A stretch of 64,000 nt of DNA from Gammaproteobacteria bacterium (GCA_013041745.1 JABDRN010000080.1:11198-75197); one strand, 5' to 3'; numbered from the stretch's first letter, positions 3,320 to 28,205 are shown. Program-made: numbers and translations. The notes: a model not told the origin generated them from the sequence alone.

Positions 3320-4117
3320 TCAAGCCCCGCTCACTTGGGTATCAATCATCTGCACAGCAAAACCATTTGGATAGCGCATATCTATTACCTTAATATTCTT
3401 TTCTGTCAGCATACTGTCACCAAGACCCTGCCCTGTCGCTAGTGAAGGCAATATGCGCACAAATCTTTGCAACCGCTTCTCTGTTTCAAAACGTCCTAGT
3501 TTTACATCTATCCTGTTAACGACAGCAGTGGAGGCTTCAGTCTCTTTCTGTTCAGCAACCACTAGCTGCCATGATCTTCTCTCATCGAGATCAAGCCGTA
3601 CTACTTCAAATTCGAGCAGCGCCATCTCCTGGTAGAGTACATTCATGAACTTCCATACATTATTATGATGTCCTTCAGGTCCATTCAGTATTGGCAGGTT
3701 AAGTTTCCTCACAACCTCCGCAGGTTTGAACACTTCACCAGATTCGTTGATATAACCATCGTTGTTCCAGTATGCGACTGGTTTCTGCTCAGTGATAAAA
3801 ACATCCAGACTTGCAGGCCATCGCCTTCTTAGAGAAACATCTTTTATCCATGGCTGCTGCTTTAGTTGCTCTCGTATATTATTTAGATTGACGGTGAAGT
3901 AACCACCATTTATTCCATTACTGACGACCACTTCGATATCGTCATTGTTGATATAGCGCAACTCACCTATCACCCTTACTTCTTCTACTGGCAATACTGT
4001 TGGTATATCCAGGTCTTTAAGCAACAGACCACCATAGATCAGCGCAGCGACAGCAAACACCGTGGGTGATGTTCTCACTATCTTTTTAAGCAACGATGTT
4101 TTGTTTTTTCTCTTCAT
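3320..4117 (-). CDS. ftsQ: Cell division protein FtsQ
   Basis: 265 aa with one N-terminal TM helix (VFAVAALIYGGLLL) followed by a POTRA-like periplasmic region. Conserved slot between ddl and ftsA. Confidence 0.9.
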   Translation of the reverse strand: MKRKNKTSLLKKIVRTSPTVFAVAALIYGGLLLKDLDIPTVLPVEEVRVIGELRYINNDDIEVVVSNGINGGYFTVNLNNIREQLKQQPWIKDVSLRRRWPASLDVFITEQKPVAYWNNDGYINESGEVFKPAEVVRKLNLPILNGPEGHHNNVWKFMNVLYQEMALLEFEVVRLDLDERRSWQLVVAEQKETEASTAVVNRIDVKLGRFETEKRLQRFVRILPSLATGQGLGDSMLTEKNIKVIDMRYPNGFAVQMIDTQVSGA

Positions 4118-18765: not shown

Positions 18766-19036
18766 GCATTTTTGTATATTCAAATACAGAAAAAACTATA
18801 TCTGACAGCAACTTAGGGCATGTTTAAGAAAACCAGGGAAAGCGTCAACAGGATATGTTTTTTAAATCATCGATTTGATAACTAAAGCTAATAATTTACT
18901 TTAAGTTAGTGCTGTTTCTGCAAAACAGCTAAATGTGAATTTCAGGAAAAGCCAAATAAAATGGTCATCATTCAATCAAAAATTGAATGAATTGTAACCA
19001 ATGATGGCCAGAATCAGACTGCGAAATAATAAAAAA

Positions 19037-19382
19037 GGGAGTCGACCGATAAGCCGGGTTCTGTCGTGGGCAATCATTCATCTGGATAACATGTCGCCAT
19101 GCACCTCAAGCAACCTACCCGGGGACAGCGCGGACCACGCATTATGCCCCCCTATTTGGTCTTGCTCCGAGTGGGGTTTACCATGCCGCAAACGGTTACC
19201 CGTTGCGCGGTGCGCTCTTACCACACCATTTCACCCTTACCAGTCCAAAAGGACTGGCGGTTTATTTTCTGCTGCACTTTCCGTAGGTTCTCACCCCCCA
19301 GGCGTTACCTGGCACTCTGTCCTATGGAGCCCGGACTTTCCTCCCCAGACTGATGTCTGGCGCGATCGCCTGGCCAACTCCC
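19037..19382 (-). ncRNA. rnpB: RNase P RNA, bacterial type A
   Basis: The reverse complement reads GGGAGTTGGCCAGGCGATCGC..GGGGAGGAAAGTCCGGGCTCCATAGGACAGAGTGCCAGGTAACGCCTGGGGG..GGTAAGGGTGAAATGGTGTGGTAAGAGCGCACCGCGC..ACAGAACCCGGCTTATCGGTCGACTCCC. This matches E. coli M1 RNA block by block. The P1 ends pair (GGGAGTTGGCC / GGTCGACTCCC). Confidence 0.94.
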
Positions 19383-19470: not shown

Positions 19471-20676
19471 TTACTCAATATCTATAACATCGAAATCGAC
19501 CACAGGGTTCACATCCGCATCATAATCGACACCTTGCACACCGAAGCCGAACAGTTTTAGAAATTCATCTTTATAGAGTTTATAGTCAGTCAGCTCTGCC
19601 AGGTTATCATCCGTCAGCTGCGGCCATAACGCTTTGCAGTGTGACTGGATATCCTCACGCAGCTCCCAGTCATCAAGACGCAGACGGTCGTTATCATCAA
19701 CTTCTGCCGCAGCGCCATCGCTCTTGTATAAACGCTGGTGGAACATGCGGTTTATCTGTTCGATACAACCTTCATGAATACCTTCTTCACGCATCTTTTT
19801 AAATGACATGGCGATATACAGAGGCATCACAGGAATAGCAGAACTCGCCTGCGTAACGACACTCTTCAATACTGCGATATTGGCGGAACCATTGATCTTT
19901 TTCATCTCGCTATCGATGGCATGTGCTGCCCTGTCCATGTCTTTCTTTGCTTCACCCAGTGCGCCCTGCCAGTAGATCGGCCAGGTGATCTCGGTACCGA
20001 TATAACTGTAGGCGACGGCTTTGCAGCCATCGGCCAAAGCGTCAGCATCAGACAGCGCCTTCATCCATAACTCCCAATCCTGGCCACCCATCACGGTAAC
20101 CGTGTTGGCAACCTCTTCCTCGGTTGCGGGTTCCACGGTTGCTTCATACAGCGTATCTTTATTGGTGTCGACGGCTGTCGTAGTATAAGGCTCGCCGATG
20201 GGTTTCAGCACCGAGCGCACAACCTCGCCAGAGTCCGGCAGCTTTCTTACCGGTGATGCGAGTGAATAGACCACCATATCGATCTGACCGAGATCCTGCT
20301 TGATCAGTTCGATCGCTTTTGCTTTAGCTGCATCGCTGAAAGCATCACCATTGAGACTCTTCGCATACAGACCAGCTTCATGGGCAAACTTTTCAAATGC
20401 CGCAGAGTTGTACCAGCCTGCAGTACCGGTTTTCTTCTCCGTCGCCGCTTTTTCAAAAAACACACCGATGGTTGATGCACCACAGCCAAAAGCCGCAGTG
20501 ATACGCGATGCCAGGCCATAACCACTCGATGAACCGACTACCAGCACGCGTTTAGGGCCGTCGGTTATCTCTCCCTGTTCCCTGGTATAGGCAATCTGTT
20601 CTTTTACGTTCAGTTCGCATCCGGTCGGATGTGTCGTGGTACAGATAAATCCGCGTATCTTTGGTTTGATGATCAT
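19471..20676 (-). CDS. fabV: Enoyl-ACP reductase FabV (trans-2-enoyl-CoA reductase family)
   Basis: 401 aa. The N-terminus [28 protein letters not shown] and [16 protein letters not shown] are characteristic of FabV. Confidence 0.92.
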
Positions 20677-20864: not shown

Positions 20865-21332
20865 TCAGAAAAGCAAACTATGAACTGTCGCTTCAGGGCC
20901 GGGACGTCGCAACAGACGGCCAAAAAAGCGATTCAATTTATGGTTGCGAGGCAAGAAAGAAAAACAGCACCTTCTGCGGCAATCCAGCTGGGCACAGGCA
21001 CGGTTGAGTTGTTCATTATCAGCATCTATCTTTATGCCATGTCGAATAGCATCAACAGCGCGTTTTCGATTTTGACTCTGCCACTCGGCACAGGCCAGAT
21101 TCAAAAAAACCTCACCCTCAAAAACTTCATTACTGGCCGCATCCCGACATAGTAACAGGCCGTTACTGTTCGAGTTGAGTACCTGCGTCAGACCATAGTA
21201 AGACAACACGCTATTATAATGTTCGTCATGCTCATCAACTGAATCAAGGGCTATCTTAAAAGCACGTTCAGCTGCTTTATAATCCTTCGCCCTGAGTGCA
21301 TCTTTTGCATTTTGATAAGCATCTATATCCAT
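20865..21332 (-). CDS. Hypothetical protein, TPR-like N-terminus and Cys/Arg-rich C-terminus
   Basis: 155-aa ORF in a clean intergenic slot. A helical-repeat-like segment (AKDALRAKDYKAAERAFKIALD). No family recognised. Confidence 0.5.
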   Translation of the reverse strand: MDIDAYQNAKDALRAKDYKAAERAFKIALDSVDEHDEHYNSVLSYYGLTQVLNSNSNGLLLCRDAASNEVFEGEVFLNLACAEWQSQNRKRAVDAIRHGIKIDADNEQLNRACAQLDCRRRCCFSFLPRNHKLNRFFGRLLRRPGPEATVHSLLF

Positions 21333-23472: not shown

Positions 23473-24741
23473 TCAGAAGAGTTTACTCATCCCTATCTTG
23501 AAGACTGACTTATCGTATATATAACGATCAACGGTCGAATCATTATCCGTGTACTGATATTTCGCTGTCAGCTTCATGGTCCTGTCGAAACGATAATCAG
23601 CAGATAATGACAGCTTCCACTGATCATCAACACGATCGATGGTGGGTGATGCTTCGAATTCACTAAACCGATAAGCCAGGTCACCGGTCAACCACCAGTG
23701 CTCATCGATGATATGGGTATAGACACCACGGACGGTGTGCCTGGTCGGAGAATAGTCATACGAATCGATGGCCGTGACCAGGGTGCCCCTGTCGTTCAAC
23801 TCGAACTCGTAATAGACGTTTTTTATATTATCTGCCGCATAGTTCCTGTACTCGATGCGGGCGCGTTGACGCCAGCCTTCGAGATAGTCATAGATAGCGT
23901 TATCACTTCTTATGACATCCCCGCGGTAACGAAGATATATCCGCTCCCGCCTGGTGATCGACTTGCGTGCGATAACATCCAGCTTTGTCATCGTCTGAAA
24001 ATCATCGCCCGCATAGGTGCTCTTCGACAGTTTCAGATGAATATTGCTATCCCAGTCCGCGAACCTTGTCGCCCGCTGCAGTCCTAACAGGAAGTTATAC
24101 TGATCGTTTTCATCATTACTATTGAATTTCATTCCGTAAAGACCTGCTCCCATAAGCCAGCCATCGGTCCTGCCGCCGGAGAGAAGGATATCGGTAGAAG
24201 CATACAGTTCATAGAATGAGTCGGCTTCGTCCAGTACTGAATCGCCCGAGGCAGAAAAGATGTTGTCGTCATATCCCGTATTGAACGACAGCAGGCTACG
24301 CCATCTCTTTTCCTTACCGGATAATGCAGCGAGATGTTTCTCTGACAGCCCGGTCAGTTTCTTATCTTCACCTGAAGACACAACAGAAGAAAAATACTGG
24401 CGTGCAAGAAAAACATCCTTTTCTTTTACAGCGATAAGCCCCAGGTGGTAGCGTGCGATATCACGCATGGCACCGGTCTGTTCGAGTTGCTTGAAATATT
24501 CTTTCGCTTCTTCGAGCCTGCCTACCTTGTAATAACTGCTCGCGAGATTATACAAAAGGGAGAGCGACTCCATGCCCTGATCGAGGGCCGACTCAAAATA
24601 GGCCGCTGCAGCTACATTATCGCCCGCCTGATAAGCCTTCAGACCCAGATCGTAATCTGACTCGGCTGACGCATGCAGATCTGACGCAGACAGTAATAAC
24701 AATAACGTTAATAGATAGTATATCGATCGACTTCTTTTCAT
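23473..24741 (-). CDS. Outer-membrane protein: signal peptide, N-terminal TPR-like repeats and a C-terminal beta-barrel (DUF560/Slam-like or YaiO-like, unresolved)
   Basis: 422 aa. Signal peptide ..LLLLSASDLHA. TPR-like helices (GLKAYQAGDNVAAAAYFESAL, YYKVGRLEEAKEYF). From about residue 150 there is an alternating-hydrophobic strand pattern (FNTGYDDNIF.., LSLSADYRF, LTAKYQYT) ending in ..FKIGMSKLF with a terminal Phe. Confidence 0.75.
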   Translation of the reverse strand: MKRSRSIYYLLTLLLLLSASDLHASAESDYDLGLKAYQAGDNVAAAAYFESALDQGMESLSLLYNLASSYYKVGRLEEAKEYFKQLEQTGAMRDIARYHLGLIAVKEKDVFLARQYFSSVVSSGEDKKLTGLSEKHLAALSGKEKRWRSLLSFNTGYDDNIFSASGDSVLDEADSFYELYASTDILLSGGRTDGWLMGAGLYGMKFNSNDENDQYNFLLGLQRATRFADWDSNIHLKLSKSTYAGDDFQTMTKLDVIARKSITRRERIYLRYRGDVIRSDNAIYDYLEGWRQRARIEYRNYAADNIKNVYYEFELNDRGTLVTAIDSYDYSPTRHTVRGVYTHIIDEHWWLTGDLAYRFSEFEASPTIDRVDDQWKLSLSADYRFDRTMKLTAKYQYTDNDSTVDRYIYDKSVFKIGMSKLF

Positions 24742-24819
24742 AACCGCTTCTCATCTGGATACGAAGGAATCGATGACGCTACACATCCACTCCACCGTGT
24801 AATATTTTTAAAAACACTC

Positions 24820-24848
24820 TTGACGTGGGATATTTTACCACGCATAAT
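24820..24848 (+). promoter_or_regulatory. Sigma70-type promoter for the 108-aa secreted peptide gene
   Basis: TTGACG (24820-24825), a 17-nt spacer, then CATAAT (24843-24848), about 50 nt upstream of the ATG at 24900. The spacer is almost entirely occupied by palindrome site 1. Confidence 0.55.
24825..24841. promoter_or_regulatory. Operator-like palindrome site 1 (GTGG-N9-CCAC)
   Basis: GTGGGATATTTTACCAC, lying between the -35 and -10 of the predicted promoter. Confidence 0.5.
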
Positions 24849-24856
24849 AATGACAT

Positions 24857-24873
24857 GTGGGAATAAATCCCAC
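24857..24873. promoter_or_regulatory. Operator-like palindrome site 2 (GTGG-N9-CCAC)
   Basis: GTGGGAATAAATCCCAC with perfect 6-bp arms GTGGGA/TCCCAC, just downstream of the -10 in the predicted +1 region. Confidence 0.5.
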
Positions 24874-24899
24874 TTCTATCAATAATAGAGGAAGTAACA

Positions 24900-25226
24900 A
24901 TGAAAAAATTAACTCAGTTAACAGCCCTTGGTTTCCTTATGGTCAGTGCTAATGCATATGCGCATCATCCGGCAGCCGACATCGTTGACCCGGAAGTATA
25001 TGAAATGATTGAGGAAAATGTTTCTGACGTGCATCTCGACATGACTTTTGATGACATGGGTGGTGATACATCGGATGTAGGTAGTGCCATGGAAGCTCGT
25101 GACAGCGATACTGGTGCCGAGATGGGTGGCGACCTTGCAGACGTAGGTGCCGCTATGGAAGAACGTGAGGAGATGAACGCCATGGCCGACGCAGTGCCAA
25201 GCGGCCCGATGAACTCCCAGAGATAA
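24900..25226 (+). CDS. Small secreted acidic Met/Asp/Glu-rich protein with an internal repeat
   Basis: 108 aa. Signal peptide MKKLTQLTALGFLMVSANAYA with predicted cleavage before HHPAAD. Internal repeat MGGDTSDVGSAMEARD / MGGDLADVGAAMEERE. Own promoter upstream and a clean terminator downstream. Confidence 0.75.
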   Translation: MKKLTQLTALGFLMVSANAYAHHPAADIVDPEVYEMIEENVSDVHLDMTFDDMGGDTSDVGSAMEARDSDTGAEMGGDLADVGAAMEEREEMNAMADAVPSGPMNSQR

Positions 25227-25268
25227 GAGCCCGTCAAGACTCTCAAAATAAAATGACATAGCTATTAG

Positions 25269-25301
25269 GGCCGTATCACTATTATGATACGGCCTTCTTT
25301 T
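25269..25301 (+). terminator. Rho-independent terminator after the 108-aa gene
   Basis: GGCCGTATC (25269-25277), an 8-nt loop, GATACGGCC (25286-25294), then TTCTTTTAT. Confidence 0.75.
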
Positions 25302-25306
25302 ATATC

Positions 25307-25323
25307 GTGGTATATATTCCCAC
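25307..25323. promoter_or_regulatory. Operator-like palindrome site 3 (GTGG-N9-CCAC)
   Basis: GTGGTATATATTCCCAC, ending 8 nt upstream of a TATAAT hexamer (25331-25336) that precedes the 284-aa gene. It therefore covers the -35 position. Confidence 0.5.
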
Positions 25324-25395
25324 ATAAAGATATAATACCGGTTTCAACACCATGAAAAATATCAATTATCAGACCTCTTTCCTGAGCAGGTAGAA

Positions 25396-26250
25396 ATGAG
25401 TAACAACGGTTACAACAAGACACAGCTGGCATTGATGAAAGCCGTGCGCATGTTATGCACACCATTGATCCGCCTGTTGATAGAAAAAAGTATAACCTTC
25501 CCTCAGTTACGAGATCTGTTGAAAGAGATCTACGTCGAAGTCGCCGAAAAAGATTTTTCACTCGATGATAAAAAACCGAGTGACAGCCGTATCTTCGTCC
25601 TCACCGGTATACATCGTAAAGATATCAAGCGTATCCGTCAGCAAGATCAGCACGAGTACAGCAGCGTTACCACTTCTGCTTCACTTAGCGGCGAAATCAT
25701 CGCGCGCTGGATGAGCATGCCTGAATTTCTCGATGATAAAGGTAAAGCAAAAGCATTACTTAAAAATTCGAAAGACGATGAAGCCGACTTCGAAGCCCTG
25801 GTATCGAGCGTTAATAAAGACGTCAGGCCAAAAGTTATACTGGAGGAATGGTTGCGTCTCGATATAGTCAGACTGAAAGACGATCATATCGTACTGAATA
25901 AATCCGCCTTCGTATCCAGTAAAGCGTTTAATGACATGGCATATTACCTGGGACACAATGTCCATGATCATATGGCCAGCTGCGTCAACAACATCCTCAA
26001 TGAAGATGAACCGATGCTGGAGAGGAGCGTTTACTATGCACATCTTACCAAGGACTCTGTCAACAAACTAAAAGCCATCTCAGACAAAAAAAGTGATGAA
26101 CTACTACGTCAACTGAACAAGCAGGCAATCAAGTTCTATGATGCCGACAAACAGAAAGATGAGGCGATATATCGTATGCGTCTGGGCGTTTACTGGCATC
26201 ACTCACAACTCGACAACGGAAACGATACGAATACGGAGCCTGAAGCATGA
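25396..26250 (+). CDS. Uncharacterised cytoplasmic protein with an HTH-like segment (possibly the family annotated DUF6502; from memory, unverified)
   Basis: 284 aa with no signal peptide or TM helix. The segment SDSRIFVLTGIHRKDIKRI fits a helix-turn-helix pattern. The stop overlaps the next start (ATGA at 26247-26250). Confidence 0.75.
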   Translation: MSNNGYNKTQLALMKAVRMLCTPLIRLLIEKSITFPQLRDLLKEIYVEVAEKDFSLDDKKPSDSRIFVLTGIHRKDIKRIRQQDQHEYSSVTTSASLSGEIIARWMSMPEFLDDKGKAKALLKNSKDDEADFEALVSSVNKDVRPKVILEEWLRLDIVRLKDDHIVLNKSAFVSSKAFNDMAYYLGHNVHDHMASCVNNILNEDEPMLERSVYYAHLTKDSVNKLKAISDKKSDELLRQLNKQAIKFYDADKQKDEAIYRMRLGVYWHHSQLDNGNDTNTEPEA

Positions 26251-27281
26251 AATTATTTAACCAGCTAATCTTTACAATATTGATCATCGCTTTAGCAGCA
26301 TGTTCCTATACGCCATCTGCAGATACTGTGGCCAGTGGCAGTGAAGACGAGGATATCGGTATCGGCGGAACTGGAAAGCAGGCAGTCGCCGATGACAGTA
26401 CTGGCAGCGGCCTCGGCGGAACAGGCGTACATACTACCGGTATCCTGGGTACAGTTACCGGCTTCGGCAGTATCTTCGTCAACGGCATCGAAGTCGAGTA
26501 TGACGAGAATACCGCCTTCAGTGTAAACGGAATGTTATCTACCATGCAGCAGCTCGCTATCGGTGATGTCGTCGAAGTCCTGACTACGGATGAGAATAAA
26601 TATACCCACGCAAAAGCCATCAACCTGCGACACGAAGTTATCGGCGAGGTAGAGTCCGTCGACCCTGATACATTCAGCTTCAGCATCAATGGTCAGAACA
26701 TCATACAGCCGATCAACAGAGCCGGTATGCCAGCAGTGGGTTCATGGGTGTCAGTTTCCGGATTCCGCATCGACGACAAGAGCATTATCTCCACCAGGAT
26801 TACAGCAGCCACAGCGGAACAGACCTTGTTACGTACATCTACAGATTTACCGTTTAAAGGGGAAACATCAAGATGGCTGATACAGACGTATGCACCCGGC
26901 GAACAAGCAAGATTCGAGCTGGATGACAAAGTATATACGGTACAGCTTAGCAAACCCCTAAAAGCCGCGAAGCACCAGCTTGGTATAAAGATCATGAAAC
27001 TGCACAAGGCTGAAGATCGAATCGAACTCGAGCAGATCATCGACCCGTCAGTCATGCCTCGAGGACGACAGACGGAATCGCCATATACCCAGCCTGGCAA
27101 AAGCGTGCTTCCCGGATCGGGTTATGATCTATTTCCCGGTTCGAGCCCAGGCGCCAATCAGGGCACTTTACCGGGTCAGTACATGCCTCGAAGCAGCACG
27201 CCAAGAGTTGACTCGCCGGCTACGGTTTCACCTGGCCAAAACCTGGTCGCTCCGCCTTCGGTACAGAACTACAGACGCTGA
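26247..27281 (+). CDS. Lipoprotein, DUF5666-like, with a Pro/Gly/Ser-rich C-terminal tail
   Basis: 344 aa. Lipobox IALAAC, GIGGTG and GLGGTG motifs, and a GFGSIFVNGIEVEYD motif as I remember it from DUF5666 proteins. The last 70 aa or so are low-complexity P/G/S. Confidence 0.75.
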   Translation: MKLFNQLIFTILIIALAACSYTPSADTVASGSEDEDIGIGGTGKQAVADDSTGSGLGGTGVHTTGILGTVTGFGSIFVNGIEVEYDENTAFSVNGMLSTMQQLAIGDVVEVLTTDENKYTHAKAINLRHEVIGEVESVDPDTFSFSINGQNIIQPINRAGMPAVGSWVSVSGFRIDDKSIISTRITAATAEQTLLRTSTDLPFKGETSRWLIQTYAPGEQARFELDDKVYTVQLSKPLKAAKHQLGIKIMKLHKAEDRIELEQIIDPSVMPRGRQTESPYTQPGKSVLPGSGYDLFPGSSPGANQGTLPGQYMPRSSTPRVDSPATVSPGQNLVAPPSVQNYRR

Positions 27282-27416
27282 AGTAATCCATCGTGAGTGG
27301 TCATAAACCGGAGATCAATAATGAATCAGCTAACTCAGCTGTGATATCAGCCCAGGGATGCAGTCAGATCTGGAGGGGCCAGTAAATACTTTGTAACTAA
27401 AAAGGTATCTAATTAC

Positions 27417-28205
27417 CTAATGCGCGCTCAGACCTTTTGACCTTGCCCTGAAGTTTTTTAGGATATCTTCAGCTTTCGATTCGAATGCCTCGAAGTCAGC
27501 CTTATTGGCTTCTGTCATCGCAGTCTCATCAACCCGGTAACCTGTGAGATTGATAACGCGGTTTGGCCGCAGCGTAAAGTTGCGGCGGTATTCGACGAAC
27601 TCACGCATGGTCTGCTTCTTATATTGTTCAAACTCATCTTTCATCTCGGCTCTGGCAGCCTGTTGCTCCATTTTGAATCGCTCAAACTCATCCAGCTCTT
27701 TCTGTTTGTGGATCTCGAATGCGGGGCCTGTTGACTCAACGTCCAGCAGGCCTTCTTTCAATGCCACAGTCTCGCCATTGTTCTGATCGTTTTCGCTGAT
27801 GATAAAAGTAGTACCTCGTACCCCGATGGTAGCAGCCCGCGTTTTAACCTGACGGGGTTCACCGAACACTTTTTTAAATGTGAAATAAACCTTACCTCCC
27901 AGGTAAGAAAACCAGCTGGTTTTTTCTACGCGTAAACGGCTTTTCTCATCCAGCATAGATAAGGCACCATCATCAAACTGCACGATGACACTCGCACCAT
28001 CTTTAGTGACGATGGTATCCATCTCATTTACTGCCTCATCGTTTTCTTTGATGGTGCGTTTCTCACCATTGGCATCGACGACTTCGACATCACCATCAAA
28101 CTTTAATACCTTACCGCGGGCATCGTGCTGCTCCGCCATCACTATCGATGATTGCAAGATGATGCAGCTAACCAGCAGAAAGGTGACTATTTTATTCTTA
28201 AGCAT
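27417..28205 (-). CDS. Secreted FecR-domain protein with a C-terminal coiled coil
   Basis: The start is set at ATG 28205 (MLKNKIVTFLLVSCIILQSSIVMA, signal peptide), preceded by AGGA. The ORF-track start at 28301 would overlap the uup stop. ATIGVRGTTFII is typical of FecR-domain beta sandwiches. The tail is rich in E/K/Q heptads. Confidence 0.75.
   Translation of the reverse strand: MLKNKIVTFLLVSCIILQSSIVMAEQHDARGKVLKFDGDVEVVDANGEKRTIKENDEAVNEMDTIVTKDGASVIVQFDDGALSMLDEKSRLRVEKTSWFSYLGGKVYFTFKKVFGEPRQVKTRAATIGVRGTTFIISENDQNNGETVALKEGLLDVESTGPAFEIHKQKELDEFERFKMEQQAARAEMKDEFEQYKKQTMREFVEYRRNFTLRPNRVINLTGYRVDETAMTEANKADFEAFESKAEDILKNFRARSKGLSAH

Follow-up and report, generated by a model that had tools for sequence, protein, structure and literature searches.

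What holds together the five genes that lie between prmA and uup in a Gammaproteobacteria bacterium (GCA_013041745.1 JABDRN010000080.1:11198-75197)? The block, with its genes hereafter abbreviated as g1 to g5, occupies positions 23,473 to 28,205 of a stretch of 64,000 nucleotides, which we call the window. A first-pass annotation had described it as a self-regulated locus of envelope proteins with no characterised equivalent, and had proposed that the five genes form one compact machine extending from the cytoplasm to the outer membrane. The five open reading frames (ORFs) are all present at the positions and on the strands then given (table 1), and our results support self-regulation, in that palindromes lie within the promoters of the block, as well as the envelope nature of the encoded proteins. 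The single machine is not supported: g3 with g4 and g1 with g2 are separable pairs, to which g5 is loosely linked. The locus appears rather to be one copy of a widespread bacterial module with a new type of DNA-binding protein, which would repress its own operon and neighbouring envelope genes through the palindrome. On balance, and with modest confidence, we favor the reading that the block consists of two units of one regulon under a previously uncharacterised one-component repressor of the DUF6502 family, with envelope genes as its targets.

Conservation of Gene Pairs across Related Loci

Relatives of g3 were sought in a collection holding one genome per GTDB species, where a search with g3 as single query found nothing and a broad alignment proved too degenerate, whereas an alignment of 14 sequences sharing the motif GVHRKDVK worked; 480 stretches encoding a DUF6502 relative were confirmed. 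Eighty-eight DUF6502 loci were analyzed by our own ORF calling and hidden Markov models (HMMs), covering Gallionellaceae, Burkholderiales, Rhodospirillaceae, Pseudohongiella, Pseudomonadales, Azoarcus, Myxococcota and Binatia; DUF6502 loci thereby span the α-, β- and γ-proteobacteria together with Myxococcota and Binatia. In at least 69 of the 88 loci the DUF6502 gene is directly followed by a g4-type gene in the same orientation, most of the others being contigs that end there. Judged from this linkage, the conserved core is the g3–g4 pair. The co-occurrence of neighbors anticipated earlier is thus confirmed for these two genes, while the five genes do not constitute an obligate unit.

Beside the g3–g4-type pair, 62 of the 88 loci carry a barrel of ~265 aa with weak similarity to Phenol_MetA_deg (COG4313), and partner barrels taken from other loci match the profile PF13557 in 2/3 cases, with E values of 1e-5 to 1e-7. 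Barrels of the g1 type, combining tetratricopeptide repeats (TPR) with BBP2_2, are present in 14 of the 88, including 12 distant gammaproteobacterial loci in which the order is DUF6502, g4-type gene, COG4313-like barrel (on the opposite strand) and TPR barrel; a FecR-domain gene comes next in three of these 12 (L065, L066 and L087). As to closer relatives, one that is 88% identical (L001) has the complete five-gene block, again between prmA and uup, and a 75% relative set in a different neighborhood (L007) keeps g1, g2, g3 and g4 but not g5. Relatives at 71-73% (L002/L003, L005) have only g3 and g4, amid quite different neighbors, and two loci with g1 homologues of 58-61% identity (L089, L090) have the divergent g2-type gene and no g3–g4. 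These patterns indicate two units within the block, g1–g2 and g3–g4, plus a loosely attached g5. No conserved inner-membrane protein, ATPase or other energy source was found near the loci.

A Palindromic Operator Built into Core Promoters

The palindrome previously reported from both promoter regions of the block is real, albeit in three copies (O1 to O3 in table 1) instead of two. It measures 17 bp, GTGGGA-N5-TCCCAC, and its half-site centers are 11 bp apart. In 1.1 Mb of related loci we found 129 sites with at most one mismatch where ~2.4 would be expected, 111 of which fall between -400 and +120 of a DUF6502 ORF start. Counted by gene, 92 of 129 scorable loci have a canonical site 5' of DUF6502, and 21 of the 37 without one have a GTGTGA variant there; the palindrome is kept upstream of genes whose proteins are only 30-45% identical to g3. 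The variant, GTGTGA-N5-TCACAC, is found chiefly in Gallionellaceae and other β-proteobacteria (L009-L033, L045, L048, L064, L071). O1 is conserved in L001, L007, L089 and L090, and the g1–g2 pairs that lie apart from any g3–g4 (L089, L090) retain both operators, a situation that would point to action in trans. The sole other match in the 64-kb window, at 4062-4078 (GTGGGTGATGTTCTCAC, two mismatches; 1.5 expected), is probably due to chance.

In many cases the palindrome makes up precisely the 17-bp spacer of a sigma-70 promoter. As first proposed, g2 has a promoter and a terminator of its own, since a sigma-70-like promoter, with 10 of 12 promoter-scan matches, and a strong intrinsic terminator flank the gene; the latter would separate the transcription units of g2 and g3–g4. 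Across lineages, 43 sites show the arrangement TTGAC/palindrome/yTAnnAT, and TTGAC directly adjoins the palindrome in 102 of 419 cases. In L053, L065 and L077 sites also fall in the intergenic region that separates the two barrel genes, and in L065 the operator-containing promoter is directed at the COG4313-like barrel gene. Because the palindrome is built into core promoters, a protein bound to it would exclude RNA polymerase, and because the spacer has the optimal length of 17 bp, activation of the MerR kind is unlikely.

Metagenome contigs were also scanned, without regard to gene content, for pairs of palindrome sites spaced 8-38 bp apart, which yielded 80 loci. DUF6502 is present in 42 of them and directly flanks the sites in 34, far above any other family; the remaining flanking genes include those for an alpha/beta hydrolase (eight loci), a GT4-ABC2 fusion (eight), g2/g1 pairs, secreted Q/N-rich peptides (seven), a beta-propeller lipoprotein (three) and a cytochrome c with a poly-acidic tail (two). 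No other regulator gene is enriched in these 80 loci.

Some of the genes adjoining the palindrome deserve mention on their own. Close relatives (L002 5948-7827 on the minus strand; L108, L136, L157, L145, L146, L132, L166, L098, L120) carry, behind operator-containing promoters, a beta-propeller-like lipoprotein of 497 aa and a secreted Q/N/R-rich peptide of ~105-145 aa and NQYQNQYQ type, both of which are likely to be further regulon members in the lineage of the window. A double palindrome also adjoins a small c-type cytochrome with an extreme poly-Asp/Glu tail (L121 775-1353 and L164 1191-1661, both on the minus strand).

The DUF6502 Protein as Candidate Repressor

The families suggested earlier for g3 (DUF6502), g4 (DUF5666) and g5 (FecR) are all borne out by Pfam profile matches. 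For g3 the match to DUF6502 (PF20112) has E = 2.5e-26 and 92.6 bits, against a cut-off of 27, and extends over profile positions 3-262 of 268. The family is large, with 3137 clusters at 50% identity reaching E <= 0.001, and ten cluster representatives that we looked up returned no function names. We found no paper that mentions DUF6502 and nothing functional on the palindrome or on DUF5666, the mentions of the latter that we examined being table entries only, in agreement with the previous statement that the locus has no characterised equivalent.

AlphaFold2 (AF2) gives a confident, helical model of g3 (pLDDT 85.8), in which a winged-helix-like element occupies residues 132-167 and two short helices lie at 63-70 and 74-82. 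The best conserved segment of the protein, SRIxxLTG(V/I)HRKD(V/I)KR, falls on this helix pair; it corresponds to the stretch SDSRIFVLTGIHRKDIKRI previously singled out as resembling a helix-turn-helix (HTH) and indeed modeled as such. Of the residues of g3, H192 and N199 alone are invariant, and D191 is nearly so. The weak Foldseek matches of the model are mostly to winged-helix or HTH regulators. The protein looks like a regulator, not like a structural cytoplasmic part, and is probably dimeric.

Additional information comes from the residue that follows KR[LI] in the HTH. Where it is Arg, position 4 of the operator is G in 76 of 79 loci; other residues (Gly, Ser, Phe or Trp) go with a T at that position in 19 of 24. 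Consistently, the DUF6502 proteins of loci with the variant operator mostly have Gly or Ser replacing the Arg after KRL. This covariation is real overall, yet it reflects largely the history of one clade and has several exceptions; we therefore take it as supporting evidence and reject it as proof of direct readout.

From these data a mechanism can be proposed in which a g3 dimer would bind the palindrome and repress g3 itself, g4 and g2 until released by a signal. O1 would act by filling the spacer of the g2 promoter, O2 by covering the g2 start region and O3 through its overlap with the -35 and spacer of the g3–g4 promoter. In other genomes the DUF6502 protein would also shut off the partner barrel and various envelope genes.

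Several observations weigh against the proposed regulon. Sequence and profile searches of the PDB with g3 gave nothing significant, nor did Foldseek find a significant PDB relative of its model (best E = 0.34), so that even the DNA-binding role of g3 rests on motif and context; the palindrome may be recognized by another regulator. Neither a ligand pocket nor a conserved metal site could be identified in g3. A neighbor-joining tree implies ~6 operator changes and ~4 residue changes, and the association between residue and operator is weak within the clade that largely accounts for it. No minus-strand promoter, through which the operators might control g1, was found in the intergenic region. 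On the side of the targets, no ORF of the 64-kb window matches the HMM of the 62 partner barrels, and the envelope function is conjectural, the OB fold of g4 being generic and the tails of g4 proteins varying in composition.

Table 1. Features of the Block (window coordinates)
Feature	Position	Strand	Description
g1	23473..24741	-	422 aa; signal peptide; ~3 TPR repeats (24-121); BBP2_2-type barrel ending ...SKLF, terminal Phe
g2 promoter	24820..24848	+	-35 TTGACG 24820-24825; 17-bp spacer; -10 CATAAT 24843-24848
O1	24825..24841		GTGGGATATTTTACCAC; covers the final -35 base and all of the spacer but its last base in the g2 promoter
O2	24857..24873		Perfect palindrome GTGGGAATAAATCCCAC; just 3' of the g2 -10; also inverted repeat I5
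g2	24900..25226	+	108 aa; secreted; cleavage at AYA, mature start HHPAAD; low-complexity
Intrinsic terminator 3' of g2	25267..25296	+	12-bp stem, then T-rich tail
O3	25307..25323		GTGGTATATATTCCCAC; overlaps -35/spacer of the g3–g4 promoter, -10 TATAAT 25331-25336
g3	25396..26250	+	284 aa; DUF6502; cytoplasmic; HTH residues 63-82; proposed operator-binding repressor
g4	26247..27281	+	Lipoprotein, lipobox LAAC, Cys19; DUF5666; start overlaps g3 stop as ATGA
g5	27417..28205	-	Secreted; FecR domain; charged helical tail; loosely associated, no operator

Envelope Proteins of the Block

The overlap between g3 and g4 noted earlier was verified, and it predicts that g4 is translationally coupled to g3. 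By its signals g4 would be an outer-membrane-directed lipoprotein. It matches DUF5666 (PF18914, a domain of ~60 aa) in two stretches, with 37.1 bits against a cut-off of 27, and searches of the PDB with its sequence and profile gave nothing significant. The AF2 model, which was built from a shallower alignment, predicts a lipid-anchored N-terminus, a disordered region (21-59) bearing two invariant GIGGTG-type repeats, tandem small beta-barrels (65-265, pLDDT ~90) and a disordered tail rich in Pro, Gly and Ser (273-344). Foldseek relates the folded part to tandem OB arrays (S1, VgrG, HIN) and to single OB domains (CusF, PilY2, IF1); with the CusF-like structures 1zeq and 3e6z the probability is 0.99 and the TM score 0.55-0.57 over 72 columns, while the Cu(I) ligand set of His/Met/Met(/Trp) is not conserved in the g4 alignments. 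The motif G[ILMVF]GG[TS]G occurs in 66 of 72 profile hits of the g4 family, in one to eight copies ~10-12 residues apart, and distant homologues without DUF5666 keep the repeats together with a Pro-rich C-terminal motif. About half of the homologues have Pro-rich, charged tails, whereas the tail is His-rich in 6/66, which rules out a His-rich tail as a general feature. Homologues from Gallionellaceae (including L023 7710-9116 and L045 7773-9236) have up to eight GIGGTG repeats and tails rich in His, Asp and Glu, and that of Azoarcus sp. L1K30 (L088 7816-9663) ends in dozens of VERVEKVERPE-type repeats.

The barrel of g1 had been suggested to be of the DUF560 or YaiO type, a suggestion that we reject: g1 has no match to PF04575 at E <= 0.1, this family is not among the 25 commonest of 38 g1 relatives, and no match to the YaiO barrel was found for g1. 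The barrel belongs instead to BBP2_2 (PF10082), which is matched marginally by g1 itself (24.0 bits, cut-off 23.7) and clearly by 35 of the 38 relatives (best E = 1.5e-8). The N-terminal repeats match TPR_16 with E = 1.1e-9; TPR_Slam (PF24575) gives weak matches in 14 of the relatives (best E = 1.2e-4) and is not listed for g1. PDB searches with g1 returned TPR matches only, and a 100% identical protein from a gammaproteobacterial metagenome-assembled genome is named 'tetratricopeptide repeat protein' in NCBI. A divergent g2-type gene adjoins g1 in L001, L007, L089 and L090, the same loci in which g2 is conserved (6e-61 in L001); no such peptide was found beside the g1-type genes of Pseudohongiella-like loci. 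The mature g2 peptide (86-87 residues) contains 9 Met and 23 Asp+Glu, for a net charge of ~-20, and has no Pfam, NCBIfam or PDB relative.

Two g1 homologues have other neighbors. That of L091 (4322-7269, 55% identity) is found 3' of genes for an extracytoplasmic function (ECF) sigma factor, a zf-HC2 anti-sigma factor and a 127-aa protein, and no palindrome is present, suggesting that the same barrel may be under different control there. In L089 (7606-10832) the g1 homologue is followed by an 88-aa gene, a 401-aa weakly BBP2-like protein and ZnuA-like and ABC-3 metal-transporter genes.

The last gene, g5, matches FecR (PF04773) with E = 4.1e-12 and 46.8 bits (cut-off 24) and begins with a cleavable signal peptide, MLKNKIVTFLLVSCIILQSSIVMA. 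It accompanies a g1-type gene in only five of 14 loci, FecR matches occur in only 4 of the 88 DUF6502 loci, and scanning of the 64-kb window showed no palindrome 5' of g5. A role as FecR-type anti-sigma factor was considered and discarded, for g5 has no cytoplasmic anti-sigma domain and no partner ECF sigma-70 gene is found in the 20-32 kb region of the window. Searches of the PDB with g5 gave nothing significant; its N-terminal part weakly matches 5ix9, an 'Antifreeze protein' (E = 0.054), and residues 33-96 weakly resemble the LapA-type 'retention module' of NCBIfam, NF033682 (29.5 bits, below the cut-off of 50). Outside the core of the module, g5 probably serves g1-type barrels as a periplasmic accessory.

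Taken by their architecture, g4 and its barrel would form a tether-plus-channel pair at the outer membrane, which would hold a substrate or let it pass, be it a hydrophobic molecule, a cation or, like g2, a disordered peptide. In the lineage of the window the role of partner barrel would be taken by g1, and g2 may be a disordered, acidic, Met-rich periplasmic or secreted peptide linked to g1 either as its client or as a cation buffer. A bolder proposal, which we advance only tentatively and consider rather unlikely, is that DUF6502, the GIGGTG/OB-fold protein and a small barrel represent a new and widespread class of envelope device, in which an anchored and partly disordered tether, together with the barrel, exports or displays disordered peptides or passes a hydrophobic or cationic substrate, under feedback from a transcription factor of new fold whose operator is almost unchanged across proteobacterial classes.

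Regarding the surroundings of the block, the window contains a full-length RNase P RNA of class A (19034-19381, minus strand, 331.8 bits) just upstream of a fabV-like gene (19471-20676), and between fabV and prmA a 155-aa ORF (20865-21332, minus strand) with weak TPR similarity and a Cys/Arg-rich C-terminus, the position of which is taken in L001 by a 183-aa gene without Pfam match. Rfam detects no structured RNA in the block itself.

Alternative Explanations

The evidence presented above also bears on other readings of the locus. The machine for trans-envelope export or display envisaged in the first-pass annotation, with g3 as cytoplasmic part, g4 and g5 in the periplasm and g1 as pore, could draw on the intact block of L001, on the ordered arrays of L065, L066 and L087 (DUF6502, g4-type gene, COG4313-like barrel, TPR barrel and FecR, counted as recurrence of all five families) and on the TPR-plus-barrel layout, which resembles known exporters, with TPR_Slam weakly matched in 14/38 relatives. 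We nevertheless regard it as very unlikely, for g3 is soluble and carries an HTH, no conserved inner-membrane protein, ATPase or energy source lies nearby, the g1–g2 and g3–g4 pairs are unlinked in L002/L003, L005, L089 and L090, g5 is missing from most loci (FecR in 4/88) and the g1 barrel is not DUF560. Even less probable is that the palindrome belongs to a more global regulator of which DUF6502, itself non-regulatory, would be merely one target. In favor of this, DUF6502 is missing from both flanks in ~20 of the 80 loci with paired sites, and the protein has no recognizable membership in any regulator family; however, the vicinity of the boxes shows no other conserved regulator gene, DUF6502 is by far their commonest neighbor (34/80) and has a strongly conserved HTH-like motif, and sites without flanking DUF6502 are just what a local regulator acting in trans would produce, as in L089 and L090.

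Other alternatives concern what the envelope proteins do. In a metal-handling regulon, g3 would be a metal sensor, g2 a sponge similar to SilE or PcoE, g4 a CusF-like metallochaperone and the barrels metal channels. The support for it is scattered: mature g2 begins with His-His and has the Met and acidic residues counted above, single g4 domains match CusF and the C-terminal domain of SilB structurally (probability 0.89-0.99), the His-rich tails of g4 (6/66 homologues) are mostly from Gallionellaceae, the L089 homologue of g1 lies near ZnuA and ABC-3 genes and g3 has a conserved HDH...(H)N patch. Yet the OB folds match the unrelated S1, IF1 and PilY2 equally well, g4 has no conserved set of Met or His metal ligands (H129 alone comes close to invariance), most tails are Pro-rich and charged, g2 is lineage-specific, genes known for metal resistance or uptake are not regular neighbors and Pfam gives no match to SilE, PcoE or CusF; we judge this possibility improbable. 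The other alternative, quite improbable in our view, is outer-membrane export of disordered or amyloid-like peptides in the manner of Fap or curli, with g2, the Q/N-rich peptides and the Gly-repeat region of g4 as clients. Among known structures, those of COG4313 channels come closest to the amyloid exporter FapF (PMC5557850), whereas characterised COG4313 members import hydrophobic molecules (PMC4493636), so that both uptake and peptide export can be envisaged for the partner barrels. Paired operators precede small secreted low-complexity peptides (NQYQNQYQ-rich, seven loci) as well as the poly-Asp/Glu-tailed cytochrome c, and g1 always has a g2-type neighbor in the lineage of the window. Against export of this kind, there is no FapD-like protease or chaperone, g2 is highly acidic and not amyloid-prone, the window has no COG4313-like barrel, and the similarity of the family's barrels to Phenol_MetA_deg is itself weak (1e-5 to 1e-7).

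Implications of the Proposed DUF6502 Regulon

If the locus is a DUF6502 regulon, as we favor, the family gains a binding site (GTGGGA-N5-TCCCAC), a promoter mechanism (the operator as 17-bp spacer) and an envelope regulon, three testable properties with which a domain of unknown function becomes a family of regulators open to experiment. Since it is nearly identical across classes, the operator would also be a useful marker with which to predict the regulon of any genome. The exported protein with GIGGTG repeats and OB fold, together with its partner barrels, is a conserved and unexplained part of the envelope in many environmental Proteobacteria, and carriers of the envelope module include iron oxidisers (Gallionellaceae) and marine γ-proteobacteria.

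Comparison with Known Systems

The regulator family, its operator and the partnership of a GIGGTG/OB-fold protein with a barrel appear to be undescribed so far, even if individual parts of the locus recall known systems. Channels of the COG4313 or Phenol_MetA_deg type, such as Pput2725, TcpY and SphA, are 12-stranded barrels of ~270-320 aa; together with FapF they are the counterpart of the ~265-aa barrel with weak PF13557 similarity that usually partners DUF6502 and g4 (62/88), and which in at least one case, L065, would be transcribed from an operator-containing promoter. The known COG4313 members are under other factors such as SphR and have no GIGGTG/OB-fold lipoprotein partner (PMC4493636). 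The layout of g1, with signal peptide, short periplasmic TPR domain and C-terminal barrel, beside a candidate exported client, is that of Slam proteins (type XI secretion), but its barrel is BBP2_2, as in 35/38 relatives, and not DUF560, TPR_Slam is matched only weakly (14/38), and g2 is a disordered acidic peptide, unlike the Slam clients, which are lipoproteins or haemophores with a C-terminal beta-barrel domain. With FecR-type anti-sigma factors and LipL45-like lipoproteins g5 shares the FecR domain (PF04773), while it has neither a cytoplasmic domain nor a membrane anchor, no ECF sigma factor or TonB-dependent transducer is encoded nearby, and its score against NCBIfam LipL45 is 29 bits, far below the cut-off of 350.

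Small, secreted, disordered, Met-rich and acidic, g2 is reminiscent of SilE and PcoE, as are the OB domains of g4 of CusF; there is no match to these families in sequence, and neither the HxxM/MxxH motifs nor the His/Met/Trp site are conserved. The combination in g4 of an anchor, a disordered linker and a folded periplasmic domain is comparable to threaded lipoproteins of the RcsF type and to TonB-type tethers, a likeness that may extend to the Pro-rich charged (ERPE-like) tail of many homologues; this is an analogy taken solely from architecture, with no homology, and threading or energy coupling is not implied by the present data.

With regard to control, activators of the MerR type have their operator in an over-long spacer of 19-20 bp, whereas the operator described here lies in a spacer of the optimal 17 bp, and g3 has no MerR match in Pfam. 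Nor is the box that of CRP/FNR, TGTGA-N6-TCACA, for the TGTGA cores of the variant operator are 7 bp apart instead of 6. The closest parallel is with repressors of the TetR family (TetR, QacR, AcrR), which are likewise small soluble proteins combining an HTH with a helical body, have a palindromic operator over the core promoter and control themselves together with divergently transcribed genes for envelope proteins. Unlike them, g3 matches neither TetR_N nor any other Pfam regulator, has no fold match in the PDB, no TetR structure being found among its Foldseek matches, and carries its HTH at residues 63-82 of 284, not at the extreme N-terminus. What g3 would share with TetR is the familiar logic of a local repressor, and not membership of its family.

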